Of a stretch of DNA of 64,000 nt, positions 41,871 through 50,000 are shown piece after piece. The stretch lies in NCBI GenBank assembly GCA_964252035.1, contig OZ176201.1. The stretch is one strand, 5' to 3'. The DNA comes from Podarcis erhardii (lineage: Eukaryota). The position numbers were made by a program, and so were the translations under genes. The notes below the pieces were generated by a model that worked only from the letters and a program-made list of their open reading frames with translations, ran no database searches and was not told the origin of the DNA. How positions within the stretch are numbered: the first letter of the stretch is position 1; every line of letters begins with the position of its first letter.

Positions 41871-42063
41871 CATAGGAGCCAATTCCTTAGGGCCGTGGGG
41901 ACTTTGGCCCCTACAATAAAATATTTGAGGGGGCCGCGCCCCACCAAAATTGATGGGCATTCCAATTCAAATAGTGTGTGCGCGCTGCGTCATGTGATCG
42001 ATTATGCGGAGCGGGGTTTATCTTGGGCCGCCCCACAATATTTTATTCAAGTTGTCCCCCCTG
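41871..42063. mobile_element. hAT-family MITE between the UBA7 and TCTA promoters
   Basis: Imperfect TIRs CATAGGAGCCAATT / AGTTGTCCCCCCTG; 8-bp TSD GCGACGAA vs GCTACGAA (7/8 match). Confidence 0.75.
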
Positions 42064-42299
42064 GCTACGAAGAATAGCGAAGTCATTTCAGGAAAAGTTG
42101 CAAAAGGTTCTCATGGAAGGGCGGGGGCGTTGCTTCACGGTAGTGTGGTGCCTTCTTTCGAGCAGTTTCCTAAGATTATACAGCACCTGCCTTCCCTCGT
42201 CGCGGCCCCCCGCCTTCTAGCTCACGCCGGGCCTGGAAGGTGATGCCTTGCAAATGCCGCAAGCAAGCAAAAGTAAATAACAATATATCGGGAAAGTTG

Positions 42300-43150
42300 T
42301 GCAACTCAGCCCTGCGCCCATTTCACCTGCACCTCTTTGAAAGCCGGGGGGGGGGGGGGAAGGAGAAGAAACTACTCGCGGGCAAAATAGGACAGGATCG
42401 GGTTATAAGGGTGAGATCCTAACCAGACCCGCTCCAGGAAGAAAGTCTCATTGAACATAACGGGGACTTGCACCCGGGTAAACGCGCCCTGTGGAAAAAG
42501 CGGTGCAGGCGGGGTGGGAGGGAGGGAGAACTGGGGGCGGGAAGAGAGCCTCGCGGGGCGGGGCCTGGATCTTTCCCTGGGGCGCACGCGCGGCGCCGCT
42601 GACAGTTTCCCCGGGGCTTGTGGCGCAGAGCCTCTCCCGCCGCCTTTGCGAGTGGGATGGCGGCGGCCACGGCGGAGGAGGCGGTGGCGGCTGCGGCGGC
42701 TGCTGCTGCTTCTGGGCCGGCGGAGTGGGAGGTGCCGACGAAGGCGCTGCGGGCTTTCACTTGGCTTTGGCAGGAGTTCATGTCGGACTGGGAGGCCCAG
42801 GACTTGCGCGCCGCCCTCTTCCAGCTGCTCCTGCTCTGGCTGCTGGTGAGCTTGCTCGGCATCCAGGTGGCCTGGCGGGTCTACGGCAACACCGTCACGG
42901 GCCTCTACTACCGGCAAGGTAGGGCTCCCTTCCGAGGCGGGCGCTGCAGCAGCTGCCGCCGCCGCCGTCGCCGCCTTCTTTGTTTACCTCGCGTGACCCA
43001 CCCAGCGCAGCGCTTCCTCTCGCTTCGGCGTAATCCCCACCCCGGGGTAGCTGCCTCTGGGTTGCTGCTCCGCTTTCGCTTCCTACCCCGTGGCTACGCC
43101 TCGCGCTTCTTCTCCTGGCTCTCTTGGGTCCCTCGAAGCCTCGACCTTGC
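42300..43150 (+). promoter_or_regulatory. CpG island / GC-box promoter of TCTA
   Basis: CpG-dense, with several GGGCGG/GGCGGG boxes at about 42507-42565, spanning TCTA exon 1. Confidence 0.8.
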
Positions 43151-45040
43151 AGGTTGCTAAGGGTCAGTTTCCGAGTCCCCAAACCAAATGCAACCCTTAT
43201 GGACGAACAGTGGCTGCCCCGGTTGTGATGCAGGCGCATATTTGCTGAACCGTGGGAACTGGACTTGGAGGCAGACCACTTTTAAGACTAAAAAAAGAAA
43301 AAGAAAGAAAGGATGGGCTTTGGAGATGGCTGCCAAGCTCTGTTGCAACAGCCAACTATTCTACTTGGTGGAGGCTCCATCTGGATTAAGGGCCCATCCT
43401 CTCTTCGAAGTGGTCCTTTCTAAAACTAGTTGCTGGCCAATTCTGTTACCGTCCAAGTCTGTTAGATGGCCCTTTTTGTCCTGTCATGTTGGGCCACAAC
43501 AGCAGCCGTTCTGGGCACTGTTCCTAGTGCCACACTGAATACCAATTCTACCTATCCTGCTGCTGACTGACTCCAGAATTGTACAGTAATTGGATACCAT
43601 CCAGGTCCTAAACTGACCCTGGTGAGATAGTAGATAGGGAGCATGTTTTGAAAGGTACTTTGCTATGTGCATGGCACCCAGATGCAATTGTTTACCTGGG
43701 TTTCTCTCTGCTGACATCAGGGACCCCATGGGCATAGCCCGGGGGGGGGGGAGCTCCCCCCCATGCACAAAAGGAGAAGCCTGCCCCATAAAAAGCCCAA
43801 CAAGCAGATCCCCTAAATACACCTCCAGAAAGATTCTCCTTCCTTTTGTAATACATGACTGAGACTGCTGGGTGTTTGAATAATAGTATTTCTTCTGTCC
43901 TCCTCCTCAACTGCTGAGATGCATAATCACGACACAAAGAGCTGCTTAACCATTTTTCTTGCGTGAAATAATGGTGTGTGATTTGTATGCTGCTGTGATT
44001 TGTCTTTGGAACCTGCAGTATAAAGTGGCTCCCAAACAAGTAACAGTAGCTATATTGCACCCTCATTTTTTGGCATATGTCTTGAGCAAGAGGTAGAAAA
44101 CTTACTACACCATATTTGCAACGTATGTTTGCAATATTTGCAGTATGTTGCAAATATTGTGTAGTATGTTTTCCACCTCTTTCAACATCTGTTTTGCTCC
44201 TCGCACCCAAGTTAAGAGTCATGTGTCGAAGACAAATGTCACAGAAGCTTATGACTGCAATCCACTAACTGGTTTAACCAGTGCCTGGATTTAAGCCAAT
44301 TTAGTTCTACTGCCTTCAGTGGGACATTCACCTTAAATCTATTTGCTTTAATTTAATAGGGTTTGTGTGAACTGGACTAAAAAAAAATCATATTAAAAAA
44401 GACCTTTACTATCCAACCTTTCTCTTGTCAAAAACTGAGATCATGTTAATTTGGGAAGAGTTTTGGAATAACTGACTGGCATTAATTTTTATTTTCATCC
44501 ATTACATACTTTTCTTGTTAATATTTTTGGTCAAAACTTTTCAAACTAATGATCCGTTAATTGTCGGGATTAAACTATATATCCTCTCATGTGTCTAGGA
44601 ATATAGGAAGGGGTCTTAGAGCAGGCCACCCCATTGCTTCACCTGACTCAGTATTGCTTACATCAGCAGCATTTCCTTTGATTTTGAATTGTGTTTGCAA
44701 AGGAAGCGGGATTTGCAGCCGCCACTGATCATCAGCTGATCTACTTGGAGTCAAAGAACTGCCAGGTGAGAAGTCTAGCTGACTAACAATATTCTCTTCT
44801 CCTTCCCAGGTCCGGGAGGGCAGAATGGAGGGACGCCAGATGGATCCTCACACTTCTCAATGTGGTGAGTTGATTTATCCGTTGCCTTCCAGATGATGGA
44901 ATCGGTGCTCATGGGGATCTGATGTTGGAGGAATACAGGATGTGTAATCCCTGTTAATTCATCATTTAAAGTTTCGGTCTGTTTTGTTTTCATTTAGGGA
45001 GAGTTCAAGTAATGAGAGTATGAAAACGCATCGGGAGTGA
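42657..45040 (+). CDS. TCTA: T-cell leukemia translocation-altered gene protein homolog (119 aa, small membrane protein)
   Basis: Exons 42657-42918, 44810-44864, 44998-45040, all GT-AG. Protein contains [54 protein letters not shown] and KTHRE*, matching TCTA. Confidence 0.95.
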
Positions 45041-45490
45041 TGGCAGAGGTTACTAAGCCAAGCTCCTGCTGCTCTAGGAGCATAGAGGACGCTGACGCCC
45101 GCCTGCCTGCCCAGAGGCCTCGCTCTTTCAGTGCTGAGGAGACAGCAGCTATAGTCGCCCTTTCTCTCATCCTGTGGCCTGAGCTGCTGGTCAACGCTGG
45201 TGCTGTGAAAACTGTTCCTGTCCATCCATTTAACCAAGCACTGAGTCTCAGGATTGCTCTACTCAGGTTGGGAAGCTGCAGTTTCCCCTCTTCATTAAGC
45301 TGTCTGCATTTCTTCTTCTTCTTCTTCTGCCACAAGTTATTTTGCAGACTGACCTTGAGCCTGCCTCTCTTCAATGTAAATATCAAACCCATTGCTGGCC
45401 TGGAACTTGTTTCTTTCTGCAGTGGTGCTTGGATTTCCCTTGCCTTGAACTGGCCTCAACTCGTAAGAGAAGCAGATGCCAGGGCTGATG

Positions 45491-45496
45491 AATAAA
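45491..45496 (+). terminator. Candidate poly(A) signal of TCTA (AATAAA)
   Basis: First AATAAA after the TCTA stop; followed by a T-rich stretch. Confidence 0.5.
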
Positions 45497-46751
45497 TTAT
45501 TTCTCCAGCTGAGCTTAAATTGCTCTTTGCTAAGTATCCCCAATCTTGTGTTGGAAAGCTACAGAGACTTGCTTAGTCTGACAGATTCAAACCCTTGCTG
45601 GTTCCTTGCCCCTGGTCAGATTTTGCAGTCCGTGCCAATCTTAGAGCTCACTAGTTCTAAAATAGTTCTGCTCCGAAATCATACTACTTGGTGCTCAATC
45701 CCTGGAAGAGTCAGGTGATTGTGTGTGTTCTGTAGCTATGTAATGCTGGAGCTGCTGATGTGATATTGAGCATCCCTCTATTTTACCATCCACTGCCCTC
45801 TTATTCCCCGGTTGTGTGTAATGTATGGGTTTAATGTATGGGTTATAAAAGAGTGATGGAAAAATTGAATATAGTCTTGACTCTTATTGCAATAGCTATT
45901 GAGTACTTGTGTACATATGCAGAAGATTAGGGGGTTTTTTGTATTTACTTTAAACCAAAATACTTTAGAGTTCCAAAATATTAGAGTTTGCTCTGAAGTA
46001 ACTCAGAGCAAAACTGTTGAACAGCATTCCTGCTCAATTATGATAGGTGCCCGCTATCTGTACTTTCCATAAACAACTGAAGATCTTTTTGTTTTGACAT
46101 GCTTTTTCAGTTGGATGAAAATGTCTTCACTCAAGGTTTTAAAACAATGCAAAAGGAACATCCCTCCTAAGTTGTTGTTTTTTGTACTGTTTGAAAATTT
46201 CCTTGAGATGCATATAAATACATACTATTTCCCCAAAATAGCTGCTGCACAAAAAGTATTTTATCTCCATTTATATGGAGCAGTTCATAGCAGCTCTCAA
46301 TATTAGTGTCTTCAGCATCCAAAGTAAAAAATGGTTCCTTCAAATGTAGTTCTGAATCTTCTAGGCTAGATGGCAGTAAGAAAACAAAGGGGTTTGCTCA
46401 AGCTGAAACACTATTTAAATATGCCCCCTCCAGAAAAATAGTAAGAAGAGCAGGCCTTGGGCTAAGTATTAATTGGTGTAAACATTATTTGGAAGAAGAA
46501 GCCCACATCAGGGCATGATTTCTCTTTTTTGAGAAGTAGCAAGTACATCTTTCTTCCCCTACACTACAGGGAGAATATTTACCAAACTGGTAAAATGAAT
46601 GTGCTGAGCCTACGTATGGGAAATAGAAGGAAGCTTGTTCTTTACTTTTGTTGCAATATAAGGGTCTTCTTTCTGCTTCTAGCTGAGCATGCATCAGACC
46701 ATTTCAAGAAAAGGAGCAGATTGAAAAGGGCAGGAGAAAATTCATTGACTT

Positions 46752-46757
46752 TTTAAT
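46752..46757 (-). terminator. Candidate poly(A) signal of AMT (ATTAAA)
   Basis: First ATTAAA/AATAAA I found on the minus strand after the AMT stop, about 300 nt downstream. Confidence 0.35.
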
Positions 46758-47052
46758 ATTTGGGGATAAATGCAAAAGAGGGGTGGGTGGAGTTCTGGAG
46801 ATCAAGTCATTGGGATCTTTCTGCTTTTAGCAATAGGCCAGGAGGCAGATGAAACTGGAGCATGTCGTCAAGTCTTGCTCATTTGCCTGCCTCTTCAGTT
46901 GTTAACGTCCCCAACATCCCCTGAAATAGTTTATCTCTTTTTAGGGCTGTTTTCTTTTCAGTAACCACCTTTGTGGCAGAGCCCTAATGGAATTGAGGGG
47001 CCCTTTATAGGCAGGCCAGAATACAAAACTGAAAGCCAGTGCCAGCAGCAGC

Positions 47053-50000
47053 CTATTTCACTGTATAGTAATTGGTGGCTACAAAGGGCATCTTGGTCAC
47101 TAGAGCAGGGCAGCTCTTCTTCCTCACTTCTACAGTGAGGGCTGTGCTCAGTTTGCTGTAGTCACTCTCCACGTATCCCATGGCGATGTTCTTCTGCAGA
47201 CAGGGGGAAGGGCAGCCACTGGTAACCTCACCTAGCGCATGGGGGAACAGACAGAGCACTTATCAAAAGCAAACATACAATTTCTGCATTCAATGATCAA
47301 TAAAAATTGCTGCCAAAAATGCGACTTCTTCCCAATTTCTATAAGTAGGGTGGAGAGCCTAGTTTTCTACTCACACCAATGGCCCTAAGAGCAATTAACA
47401 TGCATGGCCCTTTAATGATCCACTAAAGACAAGAAAAATGCAAACAAGCTATGGAGCGTGTATACCTCCAGAAGGTTTGTTGCTGCTTTCTGTATGCAGT
47501 TCCAATAGAACACCTCTAAAAGGCTGCATTTTGCAATAATCTTCAATGAGGCTCACTTACTAGAATGTACTACTCTGCCGCCTGAAAGGGGCAGGGAGTT
47601 AATAGAAGAAATACACCTTCTCAATACACCTTACCCAAATTTTGCATGGTGGTTTGAGAGATTAAGGAGCAGGTTTTCATCCATGTTCATATATAAATGG
47701 ACACGATTTTGAAGCAAAATGATGGGCAGCCTTTCAAAACTGCACTGGTTTTGTCTCCAATAATTTATGAGCAACACTGGGTACAAGGCTGCTAGTTCTA
47801 AACAAAGTTGTGCACCGAACACCATTGCCTGCAGTATGACCAAGCACAGCAAGTATTACATGCTTATTGGGGTGCTTGTTGTATCAGAGGGCTGATATGT
47901 CATCTTCCTAGACAGTACTCAGAGAAGCTTGGAGAACCTACCAATGGCCTTGTCCTCTGGGCTGAGAATGGGCATGTGCTGCCGGATGGGAGGCCCTGAA
48001 GAAGTCAGCCCCACGCGTTTCCTTTTGGGTTTCTCTTTGATTTGGGCCAGTATGATTGATGCACCGGGGAAATCCATGGCAGCACGGCGGCGTTTCCCTG
48101 AGAAGCAATTGGAAATAAGGTGTCCTGTTAAGGCCAAGAGATCAAGAATTCCCATGCTTGTGGTCCAAATTACCCTCACCACATAGTGTCCCATCACCAC
48201 TGAAGGCCTAGTGCAGCTTCTCTCCCATTCAAAAAAAAAAACACCCTTGTTCCATGTCCAGTCTACTCTGGTCTGGGGTGCAGGAATGGGTGACTTTTTG
48301 CCTATTTGATATTGGCCAGGAATGTCAATGGGTAGGCAGGCAGGGAGAGAAATCCAGAATTGCAGCTGGCACCTACCAAGGGTCCATATCAGACTGGCTT
48401 CCACAGGGGTTGTGCTCTCATCAATGTCGTTCCCATACAGACACAGACCTGCCTCCAAGCGCAAACTGTCCCGGGCTGCGAGTCCTGCCAGCCACACAGT
48501 GGAGTCCTTAAGCAGCAGCTCAGCCAGCTCCACAGCTTGGCTTGCAGGCACAGAGATCTGGGTACAGAGGAGCACAGTGATTTGGTCAGTGTGATTTTTG
48601 CTACCGTTCCCCCCCCCCACTCCCAACTTCAGGTCACCTGGCCCGATCCTGCACGCTAGCTCTATCTGAGGCTATGTCCAGGCTTGACTGACACCCTTCT
48701 CGCCCAAGCCAACCTGATTCAATAATCCCCTTTATTAATACGCTGCCCTCCTAGCCTGAAATAGCTTCTTGCTTCTCAGTGCACAACATCAGTGCTCCTG
48801 CTCCTCCCACCTCTTTTTGGTTAGCTGAGCTGAGCCCTGACCGTGTAAAGGTAAAGGTAAAGGACCCCTGGACAGTTAAATCCAGTCAAAGGTAACTATG
48901 GGGTTGTGGCGAGGGAGATGGTATTTGTCCACAAACAACTTTCTGGATCATGTGGCCAGCATGACTAAACCGCTTCTGGCACAACGGGACACTGTGACGG
49001 AAACCAGAGCACACAGAAACACTGTTTATCTTCCCGCCACAGCAGTACCTATTTATCTACTTGCACTGGTGTGCTTTTAAACTGCTAGGTTGGCAGGAGC
49101 TGGGACAGCAACGGGAGCTCACCCCGTTGTGAGGATTCAAACTGCCAACTTTCTGATCGGCAAGCCCAAGAGGCTCAGTGGTTTAGACCACAGCACCACC
49201 CCCGTCCCATTCCCTGACCGTGTACCTCTACGCCATCCTCGCCTGTGTAGCCACAGCGGGTGACCCTGCAGCCTGGCACTCCAAAGACACTCATCACTGC
49301 ACTGGTCATGAAGGGCAGCTTAGCCAGGTTGTCTGACACCCCAGCCTGTAGCACCCGGGCCATGGCAGGACCTGGTAGAAGGAAGAAGGGAATTGGCTAT
49401 GAGCTTGAAGAGGTGTTAGTTATCATGCCCCCCCCCCGCAAAAGGAGGTGCAATAAGTCCCAGTTAAATGATGGAGGAAGGAATTGGGCATTTCAAGCTG
49501 AATGAAGTGGGCTCAGCCACATAGAGGGTGTTGCCCTTGCTGATCTCAGCCAAGGCACATCATTGCCACCGCGGCAGTAGGATAGAATTCACTGCCACAT
49601 GATGTGGCACAAGCTTAGTCTCTCAAAAGGCTAGGGCAAACTCATGGACGAGTGATCTACCATTAACAGCCACAACAGGTAAATGTAACAGTCTACACTC
49701 CTTCCAGGACCAGCCCAAGACATTTTGCTGCCTGAGGACAAGGTAACACCCCACTCCCTAAAGACCTTAGTGAGTGGACAGAGATACAAGGAACCAGGTG
49801 GTCCCTGATTCCACCCCCACATAGAATGGCAGAAGGGCTCTATCTTGTCCTGGCGTACCTATACATCTCTGCTATTTAACCCCTTGCTGTTGCTCCTTGC
49901 CCTCACAGGATCTGCTTGCTGGGAAAGCTGCCTCACTCTGCCTAATGATAGGACCAGTCCTCTCCCCTCTGAGTATCAGATACTGGGGACAAAGAAAAGG

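Follow-up and report, generated by a model that had tools for sequence, protein, structure and literature searches.

The closest described systems are the small-class TURBS of caliciviruses, influenza B segment 7 and hapaviruses (PMC11921876), in which a purine-UGGGA motif flanked by stem P1 pairs with helix 26 of 18S rRNA. The rules set out by Sherlock et al. (2025, PMC11921876) comprise a purine followed by UGGGA, with 6–10 nt complementary to the apex of 18S helix 26 (ES7); a C–G pair at the fourth position of P1; a linker of 12–24 nt, with P1 ending 12–23 nt from the AUG and 12–24 nt from the stop and the AUG lying at −8 to +6 of the stop; and a +2 stop/start overlap. Synthetic viral TURBS reduced to minimal motif sets give 30–73% of wild-type reinitiation (PMC6393290). 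Among cellular mRNAs, putative TURBS with a UGAUG and a UGGGA-like motif were proposed from sequence for two messages, an embryonic splice variant of mouse GAD and the leader of human SLAMF1 (reviewed in section 16 of PMC5972666; see also PMC2793014 and PMC10976276). The available sections of reviews name these two as the only sequence-based proposals and treat cellular TURBS-type reinitiation as an open question, and the literature searched contained no demonstrated cellular TURBS. Two further systems place a second ORF at or behind the end of a cellular ORF: the human mRNAs of CASQ2 type (Gould et al. 2014, PMC3923131), which lack a TURBS and whose coupled termination–reinitiation requires an Asp-rich ORF1 C terminus with GAUGAU repeats, and the vertebrate downstream ORFs (dORFs; Wu et al. 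2020, PMC7459409; Yang et al. 2024, PMC10908861), 3′ UTR ORFs without sequence conservation that span 10–100 codons by definition, lie mostly apart from the stop and are proposed to recruit new ribosomes.

The TCTA gene of the lizard Podarcis erhardii lies within the window analysed here, a 64,000-nucleotide stretch of contig OZ176201.1 (assembly GCA_964252035.1), and resembles the viral small-class elements in its purine-UGGGA motif able to pair with helix 26, its flanking P1-like stem, a C–G pair four bases before the motif, a 20–22 nt linker and a UGAUG overlap (Table 1). As opposed to the viral elements, it sits in a cellular mRNA, its motif spans a splice junction and its downstream ORF is an orphan. 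With the GAD and SLAMF1 candidates it shares a cellular mRNA, UGAUG and a sequence-proposed motif, but the downstream ORF there is a known protein, whereas here a full-length gene carries an orphan ORF in its 3′ UTR. The TCTA protein, whose last residues are KTHRE, has no Asp run of the kind seen in the CASQ2-type mRNAs, and the TCTA downstream ORF, unlike most dORFs, overlaps the stop.

Table 1 Features of the TCTA locus, in window coordinates
Feature	Position	Strand	Evidence or remark
TCTA coding exon 1, from the ATG to the donor of intron 1	42657..42918	+	Pfam PF15128, E 4e-22; 98% identity to Podarcis muralis TCTA; donor GT 42919
TCTA coding exon 2, 55 nt	44810..44864	+	AG/GT boundaries; orthologues match spliced translation
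P1-like stem, 5′ arm, UUCUCA	44854..44859	+	Phe-Ser codons; includes C44858 of the C–G pair
5′ half of GUGGGA, GUG	44862..44864	+	
TCTA intron 2, 133 nt	44865..44997	+	Removal assembles GUGGGA
3′ half of GUGGGA, GGA; exon 3 begins here	44998..45000	+	Pairs with the genome's own 18S helix-26 apex
P1-like stem, 3′ arm, UGAGAG	45013..45018	+	Asn-Glu-Ser codons
UGAUG, TCTA stop overlapping downstream ATG	45038..45042	+	
151-codon downstream ORF, no homologue found, moderately hydrophobic	45040..45495	+	GRAVY 0.46; a single 19-residue window with a peak of 1.86
AATAAA, probable main poly(A) signal	45491..45496	+	UGUA at 45375; U-rich stretch downstream
AMT last coding exon, convergent with TCTA	47053..47229	−	Pfam GCV_T_C, E 4e-16; translation

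Exons 1 and 2 joined to 44998–45040 encode a 119-residue TCTA protein (Pfam PF15128). Its C terminus agrees with annotated lacertid proteins over the exon 2/3 junction, so that orthologue annotation supports the predicted junction. No canonical hexamer (AATAAA or ATTAAA) other than the AATAAA at 45491–45496 lies on the + strand from the TCTA stop to 47060, a point past the stop (~47053) of the convergent AMT gene, whose last exon limits the TCTA 3′ UTR to about 2 kb; variant poly(A) hexamers are present beyond the AATAAA. Neither another copy of the TCTA region nor a retrocopy of it was found in the genome. Old repeats lie at about 46014–46190 and 47613–47800 among the repeats identified, none of which overlaps the 151-codon ORF. 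An Rfam scan of unspliced genomic 42000–48000 gave five matches, each of them to an intronic hairpin and with a score below the gathering threshold, and 52 pattern matches in metagenome contigs included no TCTA relative.

The joined exons reproduce the arrangement described in the original prediction: splicing makes GUGGGA, ending 37 nt 5′ of the stop, the flanking arms can pair through five Watson–Crick pairs and one G–U, and the TGA of TCTA at 45038–45040 overlaps an ATG in the context GTG-ATG-G. Without splicing, exon 2 ends in GUGGUG, and UGGGA is absent from genomic 44940–45037. The Kozak context of this ATG is good, as originally noted; such context is no evidence for a TURBS, human norovirus TURBS reinitiation being independent of it according to a review (PMC10275272). 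Among 30 real GPCR stops in the Podarcis erhardii genome, one has the same UGAUGG overlap.

Set against the published rules, GUGGGA(G) forms with the genome's own 18S apex a predicted duplex of seven pairs at −9.2 kcal/mol, a value that excludes the cost of opening helix 26. The C–G pair, C44858–G45014, is the fourth of the five Watson–Crick pairs of P1 (fifth counting the G–U), Ser and Glu codons dictate both of its bases, and C44858 sits 4 nt 5′ of the purine, a position shared with several viral elements (by eye). P1 ends 22 nt before the AUG and 20 nt before the stop (21 and 19 counting the G–U), UGAUG is the +2 arrangement and the 5′ arm has the feline calicivirus type of layout (by eye). 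In silico, the P1 core has a predicted probability of 0.66–0.99 in seven of ten folding windows ending before the ribosome footprint, 0.005–0.17 in the remaining three, and 0.04–0.08 once the stop region is included; the stem is thus predicted to form once a ribosome covers the stop. With P1 formed, fully open GUGGGA makes up <1% of the predicted ensemble, and opening it would cost 2.9–6.1 kcal/mol, compared with the −9.2 kcal/mol of the duplex. The lizard P1 contains two G–C pairs, as opposed to three to five in small viral elements (by eye). The loop that follows GUGGGA measures 12 nt, with no stable P2, which is the architecture of neither the small nor the large class; loops in five small viral elements measure 5–8 nt (by eye, a range that is our reading and not a rule stated by the authors), and a structure descriptor with the loop limited to 8 does not match the lizard element. 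The geometry therefore follows most of the published TURBS rules, with loop and stem strength outside the small viral examples. What had been called a TURBS-like element is a real geometry and a better fit than was recognized, qualified by its long loop and weak stem.

The original prediction cautioned that UGGGA follows from the Trp-Glu codons, rightly so: the conserved Met-Trp-Glu codons force RUGGGA, which every synonymous encoding (100%) of the lacertid C terminus contains and which 16 of 27 reptile orthologues cannot avoid. Stems with at least four Watson–Crick pairs and the C–G pair arise in 13–18% of lacertid encodings and in 31–34% of most N-E-T-type encodings. Judged from reptile protein sequences, the element would be possible in the four lacertid orthologues and practically impossible (0–2% of encodings) in six of the 27, namely Rhineura, Hemicordylus, Anolis carolinensis, two snakes and tuatara, and is therefore not squamate-wide. 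Trp-to-stop spacing is equal in all 27 reptile TCTA proteins. Among 3,000 synonymous variants, 64 better the actual codons in P1 folding, placing these in about the top 2%, and three do so for P1 combined with an open motif, although the register was fixed after seeing the case and the ranks are therefore anti-conservative. The TURBS-like layout is likely to be mostly a by-product of TCTA's own codons.

The downstream ORF runs for 151 codons, as predicted, to a TAA inside the AATAAA; since AATAAA contains TAA, an end at this point needs just a one-in-three frame match. Chance ORFs of similar length, a caveat raised at the outset, are indeed present in the window, where 8 of 30 ATG ORFs of at least 100 residues reach 151. 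An ORF this long follows 0.09–0.4% of ATGs, and 18 of 20,000 dinucleotide shuffles leave the frame open. The codon score of the ORF, −0.004, lies below that of TCTA (0.241) and below the 0.126 of real coding chunks, of which 9 of 60 score as low; its synonymous codon score exceeds the median for other long ORFs and is equalled or surpassed by 13 of 64 GC-matched ones, and GC is flat over codon positions. Homologues of the product were found neither among 214 near-length and five shorter candidates nor in 1.84 billion representatives, and there is no Pfam match and no paralogue in the genome; the best ESM Atlas score was 0.78 (recognition 929), and AlphaFold2 run without an alignment was uninformative, with a pLDDT of 55.8 and a pTM of 0.33. 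Standard annotation generally leaves 3′ UTR ORFs uncalled, and the libraries rarely contain them, so that missing homologues are weak evidence. A run of Phe codons stems from a TTC microsatellite. On the opposite strand, an ORF of 132 codons (44994–45392) has no Pfam match and is in part a consequence of the open sense frame.

TCTA is among the orthologue pairs with translated dORFs in human and zebrafish (Dataset EV3; Wu et al. 2020, PMC7459409). The same human stop was called anew in a second Ribo-seq study, the TCTA entry in a third is a uORF only, and a fourth has no TCTA row. In zebrafish tcta, UGAUG is followed by 49 codons in frame with the called dORF, the call consisting of 36 reads over two codons and the overlapping AUG lying 33 codons before the called dORF; human TCTA lacks the AUG overlap, and its dORF, preceded by roughly 45 open codons, starts 136–160 nt downstream, outside the TURBS range. 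The two downstream peptides look unrelated (by eye), the dORF being shared by the orthologues in presence and not in sequence, and dORFs of this kind are seldom conserved in sequence (6 of 1,406). Shared dORF orthologues number 123, about 80 being expected by chance, and 3′ UTRs are translated in 19.6% of human genes. Called dORFs are short (median 20 codons) and start within the 3′ UTR, apart from the stop (Wu et al. 2020), whereas the lizard ORF has 151 codons and an AUG overlapping the stop.

By chance, 1.3–5 cases of a stop/start overlap with an ORF of at least 151 codons, and about seven of a TURBS-like fold with a nearby AUG, are expected per genome. The whole feature set is expected 0.0001–0.36 times, and the full conjunction at the observed ORF length 0.0001–0.07 times, per genome, depending on criteria chosen after seeing the case. 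The set is thus unlikely in any single gene, and its separate parts are common. In zebrafish tmub1, UGAUGG is followed by about 98 open codons (by eye), with the called dORF in a different frame.

The reading that we favour, tentatively and at somewhat under an even chance, is an ordinary monocistronic TCTA gene with a coincidental TURBS-like fold. Conserved TCTA codons would spell GUGGGA and most of the flanking stem, ribosomes would terminate at UGA 45038 and be recycled normally, and the mRNA would end near 45510; the 151-codon frame would probably be unselected and entered rarely or never, its length and the UGAUG overlap being rare extremes of ordinary variation among 3′ UTRs. The forcing of RUGGGA, the six orthologues unable to encode the element, the missing homologues, the long loop, weak stem and rarely open motif, the per-genome expectations for separate parts and the tmub1 case all argue for this coincidence; the rare conjunction, the shuffles, the synonymous-variant ranks, the activity of minimal viral motifs and the TCTA dORFs of human and zebrafish count against it. 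A TURBS-aided, low-level restart on a non-conserved ORF, the 3′ UTR translation being accidental or regulatory, is a reading that we regard as possible but unlikely. By viral precedent, on which every step would depend, refolded P1 would present GUGGGA to 18S helix 26 and hold the 40S subunit after termination, a few percent of ribosomes would restart at the overlapping AUG, and retention of intron 2 would switch restart off. The geometry of the motif, C–G pair, linker and overlap, the calicivirus-type arm, P1 formation in most folding windows, an opening cost starting at about 3 kcal/mol against a stronger duplex (helix 26 opening excluded), the high rank of the fold among synonymous variants, the constant Trp-to-stop spacing and the in-frame zebrafish dORF are consistent with such a restart; the weak stem, the 12-nt loop, the partly paired motif, the three windows in which P1 hardly forms, the orthologues in which the element could not be maintained, the distant human dORF and the thin zebrafish call weigh against it. 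We consider it rather doubtful that a cellular TURBS lies hidden in TCTA's conserved last codons, is spliced together by removal of intron 2 and drives 3′ UTR restart at UGAUG in lacertids and zebrafish alike, with lineage-specific peptides.

Ordinary low-level dORF translation, through internal recruitment or leaky recycling and with no need for UGGGA, seems improbable. It would make the lizard ORF a counterpart of the human and zebrafish TCTA dORFs, shared in position and unrelated in sequence, possibly raising TCTA translation, and would agree with the twice-called human stop, the rarity of sequence conservation among dORFs and the strong AUG context; the large chance share of orthologue pairs, the frequency of human 3′ UTR translation, the third and fourth studies and the short, separate nature of known dORFs tell against it. 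Leaky scanning to the ORF was rejected, as seven AUGs lie upstream, at least two of them in strong context. A truly bicistronic lacertid TCTA mRNA, with the 151-residue hydrophobic product a selected young membrane protein, was the original idea and is very improbable. The exact span from stop to poly(A) signal, the unusual length, one transmembrane-like window and the above-median codon score speak for it, but the product has no relatives in the libraries searched and no clear coding signature, its Phe run and TAA have simple sources, and the human and zebrafish peptides appear unrelated, so that a functional second protein is unsupported. Fusion of TCTA to the ORF by alternative splicing or frameshifting is unlikely: TAA 45010 and TGA 45013 close the downstream frame, skipping of exon 2 leads to a stop at TGA 45021, neither a slippery heptamer nor a polypyrimidine acceptor is visible by eye in 45016–45040, and KTHRE is not exceeded by any of the 27 orthologues aligned.

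The element spans about 100 nt and follows most published geometric rules. If it works, TCTA would provide the first demonstration of a cellular mRNA that relies on tethering to 18S helix 26, with intron retention as an off switch; conserved coding sequence could then carry a ribosome-tethering signal as a by-product, splicing could gate that signal, and the signal could feed ribosomes to a 3′ UTR ORF. Since the looser geometry is expected in about seven genes of each genome, failure would mark the TURBS features, such as loop length and stem strength, that bar restart on ordinary mRNAs.

This locus carries the TCTA gene from a Podarcis wall lizard; its exon 1 matches Pfam PF15128, with 98% identity to the P. 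muralis protein, and its C-terminus ([19 protein letters not shown]) is shared by annotated proteins of P. muralis, P. raffonei and Lacerta agilis. The exon 2/3 junction, stem arms, stop/start overlap, downstream ORF, AATAAA and GUGGGA all lie where the original prediction had placed them, and the GUGGGA is made by splicing, being absent from unspliced RNA. Because the hexamer at 45491 is the sole canonical plus-strand poly(A) hexamer between the TCTA stop and AMT, the 3′ UTR plausibly measures about 470 nt. With a TCTA end near 45510, the AMT and TCTA 3′ ends would be near each other without overlap, whichever ATTAAA ends AMT. The inverted repeat in intron 1 has microRNA-family matches that are all sub-threshold and is possibly a miniature transposon relic. 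The 400 kb downstream (chromosome 71116001–71516000) contain no long open frame recognised as DAG1 or BSN, which adjoin AMT in human; by eye they seem to hold LRR, NACHT-like and crystallin-domain frames, and many LINE copies.

Features at and around the TCTA 3′ end
Feature	Coordinates	Strand	Remark
TCTA coding exons	42657-42918, 44810-44864, 44998-45040	+	joined, 119-aa protein
TCTA intron 1 inverted repeat	44088-44181		38 bp, 89% complementary
Out-of-frame AUGs	44825, 44840, 45012		strong context at 44825; spliced, +1 frame; 21-codon internal ORF closed by TGA 45021
P1-like stem	44854-44859, 45013-45018	+	UUCUCA with UGAGAG
TCTA stop TGA / ATG overlap	45038-45040 / 45040-45042	+	from sequence
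Downstream ORF	ATG 45040-45042 to TAA in AATAAA 45491-45496	+	151 codons; from sequence
Antisense ORF	44994-45392	-	132 codons; overlaps downstream ORF; no Pfam match
AMT ATTAAA	45830-45835, 46752-46757	-	candidate ends of AMT mRNA
AMT last coding exon	ends near 47053		convergent with TCTA

In viral termination-reinitiation elements (TURBS), a purine-UGGGA motif pairs with the 18S helix-26 apex and is flanked by a stem, P1, whose fourth pair is C-G; spacers of 12–23 nt and 12–24 nt lead to the AUG and to the stop respectively, and the AUG falls between −8 and +6 (Sherlock et al. 2025, PMC11921876). The lizard element agrees with all these rules: C44858-G45014 is pair four of a 5-pair Watson–Crick P1, from which linkers of 22 nt and 20 nt lead to the AUG and the stop. 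The genome's own 18S carries the matching apex, for which a 7-pair duplex with the motif is predicted at −9.2 kcal/mol. P1 is rare when the stop region is included (predicted probability 0.04–0.08); after deletion of the bases under the terminating ribosome it is predicted at 0.66–0.99 in 7/10 windows and 0.005–0.17 in the other 3. The GUGGGA is fully open in <1% of the predicted ensemble, at a cost of ~3 kcal/mol in most windows. Compared with five small viral TURBS (values read by eye), the motif is followed on its 3′ side by a loop of 12 nt rather than 5–8 nt, and P1 has 2 G-C pairs rather than 3–5. The TURBS interpretation originally proposed is partly supported: it stands for most of the published geometry, but not for the loop or for a conserved downstream protein. 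On these two grounds, and because its function is putative, we do not class the element as a TURBS, although it may work like one. Since minimal motif sets give 30–73% of wild-type restart (Wennesz et al., PMC6393290), the element, even if accidental in origin, may function as a restart signal.

Much of the element follows from the TCTA protein. In an alignment of 27 of 34 TCTA proteins (five isoforms or predictions excluded as aberrant and two Anolis entries as duplicates), at least 90% of the sequences carry Trp-Glu and all 27 carry KTHRE, gap-free between them. Synonymous codon resampling, with usage from 30 GPCR genes of the same genome, makes RUGGGA unavoidable in 16/27 orthologues, all 4 lacertids among them, which bears out the earlier caveat that UGGGA is a consequence of the conserved Trp-Glu codons. 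Lacertid encodings have at least 4 Watson–Crick pairs including the C-G pair in 13–18% of cases, and at least 5 in 2–3%; motif and stem core are thus, as judged from codon resampling, by-products of the protein. The element is practically impossible (0–2% of encodings) in 6/27 orthologues (Rhineura, Hemicordylus, Anolis carolinensis, Vipera, Erythrolamprus and Sphenodon), which argues that it is not maintained across squamates. Fold quality is not imposed by the protein: P1 is equalled in 64/3000 synonymous variants, and P1 with an open motif in only 3/3000, a test that exaggerates the surprise because the register was fixed as seen in this case.

Modelling puts exact stop/AUG overlaps at 6.5%, and for 3 of 30 real GPCR stops in the genome an AUG falls between −8 and +6, one being the same UGAUGG. 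In other frames, a UAAUG at 45010-45014, 28 nt 5′ of the real stop, opens a 3-codon ORF and shows how common such overlaps are. ATGs opening 151–219 codons number 70/17041 in 464 kb of the same chromosome (window included; 128 ATGs opening at least 220 codons excluded as likely genes or transposons); for this length class the counts are 12/3952 in GC-matched DNA and 1/473 in GPCR 3′ flanks. The downstream frame stays open in 18/20000 dinucleotide shuffles, and TURBS-like structure arises 5′ of simulated coding ends at 0.00008 (tight) to 0.011 (loose). If the features are taken as independent and the gene number as 20000, the complete set should turn up 0.0001–0.0004 times per genome under tight criteria, 0.007–0.07 under middle ones and 0.27–0.36 under those of the original prediction with ORFs of at least 100 codons. 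The set at lizard TCTA is a real tail event, found with criteria fitted post hoc and many genomes scanned.

We lean, at somewhat under even odds, towards ribosomes that would end at the TCTA stop and be recycled, leaving the ORF without selection. That the ORF encodes a selected second protein is very improbable. Comparison of its 151-aa product with 214 candidates of near length, 5 shorter ones, 1.84 billion representatives of any length and Pfam gave no relative; the genome gives the self-match and one at E 0.86, no relative, and the best ESM Atlas score is 0.78. These negatives are weak because ORFs in 3′ UTRs are normally not called by annotation pipelines. With a synonymous codon score of −0.004, the ORF lies between real coding chunks (median 0.126; 9/60 equally low) and other long ORFs with a median of −0.062 (13/64 GC-matched reach −0.004), a set that may contain some exons and includes this ORF. 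GC is flat over codon positions, and the product has one hydrophobic window (peak 1.86). The antisense ORF is explained in part by the open, Tyr-free sense frame. Leaky scanning to the downstream AUG and, by eye, fusion of the ORF to TCTA were rejected.

Translation of the ORF as a dORF with no need for a TURBS is rather improbable here. Gould et al. (PMC3923131) report 2214 human genes that carry overlapping second ORFs of at least 50 codons, and describe an Asp-dependent route that uses no TURBS. TCTA 3′ UTR ORFs called as translated (dORFs) are reported in human and zebrafish, a pair in a shared-orthologue table for which chance alone predicts ~80 of 123 (Wu et al. 2020, PMC7459409). In the zebrafish entry, the terminal TGA and UTR TG form the same UGAUG; by eye the frame runs 49 codons from the overlap AUG, and the called dORF (GTG start) begins 99 nt past that AUG, in frame without intervening stop. 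The call is labelled High, yet has 36 reads on 2 codons. Human TCTA ends in TAA without AUG overlap, and its CTG dORF starts 136 nt downstream, beyond TURBS range (PMC7459409); a second call shares the dORF stop (Yang et al. 2024, PMC10908861, with 3′ UTR translation in 19.6% of human genes). The human frame, open back to the stop (~100 codons by eye), differs from that of the lizard ORF and is the same +1 frame as the lizard internal ORF 44825-45023, so the human Ribo-seq signal could come from the end of an ORF that overlaps TCTA internally. The Ji et al. 2015 supplement (PMC4739776), as searched, gives TCTA a uORF only, and that of Sandmann et al. 2023 (PMC10032668) has no TCTA row. Among 6 rows inspected in PMC7459409 Dataset EV2, zebrafish tmub1 is a second gene with such an overlap, UGAUGG, followed by ~98 open codons by eye; its called dORF lies in another frame. 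The published calls raise the odds of some TCTA 3′ UTR translation without demonstrating a TURBS.

TURBS-aided restart, unlikely though more probable than TURBS-independent translation or a selected second protein, would have refolded P1 tether the 40S subunit through helix 26, so that a few percent of ribosomes reinitiate at the overlapping AUG and make a non-conserved peptide, the signal being lost upon intron 2 retention. The translation steps in all readings are proposals, and the element is more probably a coincidence than a working signal. UGAUG, the overlap also seen here, is part of putative cellular TURBS suggested earlier in mouse embryonic GAD and in human SLAMF1 (PMC5972666, PMC2793014, PMC10976276); PMC10275272, PMC3035654 and bioRxiv 10.64898/2026.05.26.727855 were also considered. 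The literature searched, with most subscription journals outside its coverage, yielded no publication on a TCTA TURBS or a demonstrated cellular TURBS. The TCTA element joins the putative cellular TURBS and dORFs as a new candidate, cheap to test and with one independent hint, from zebrafish.
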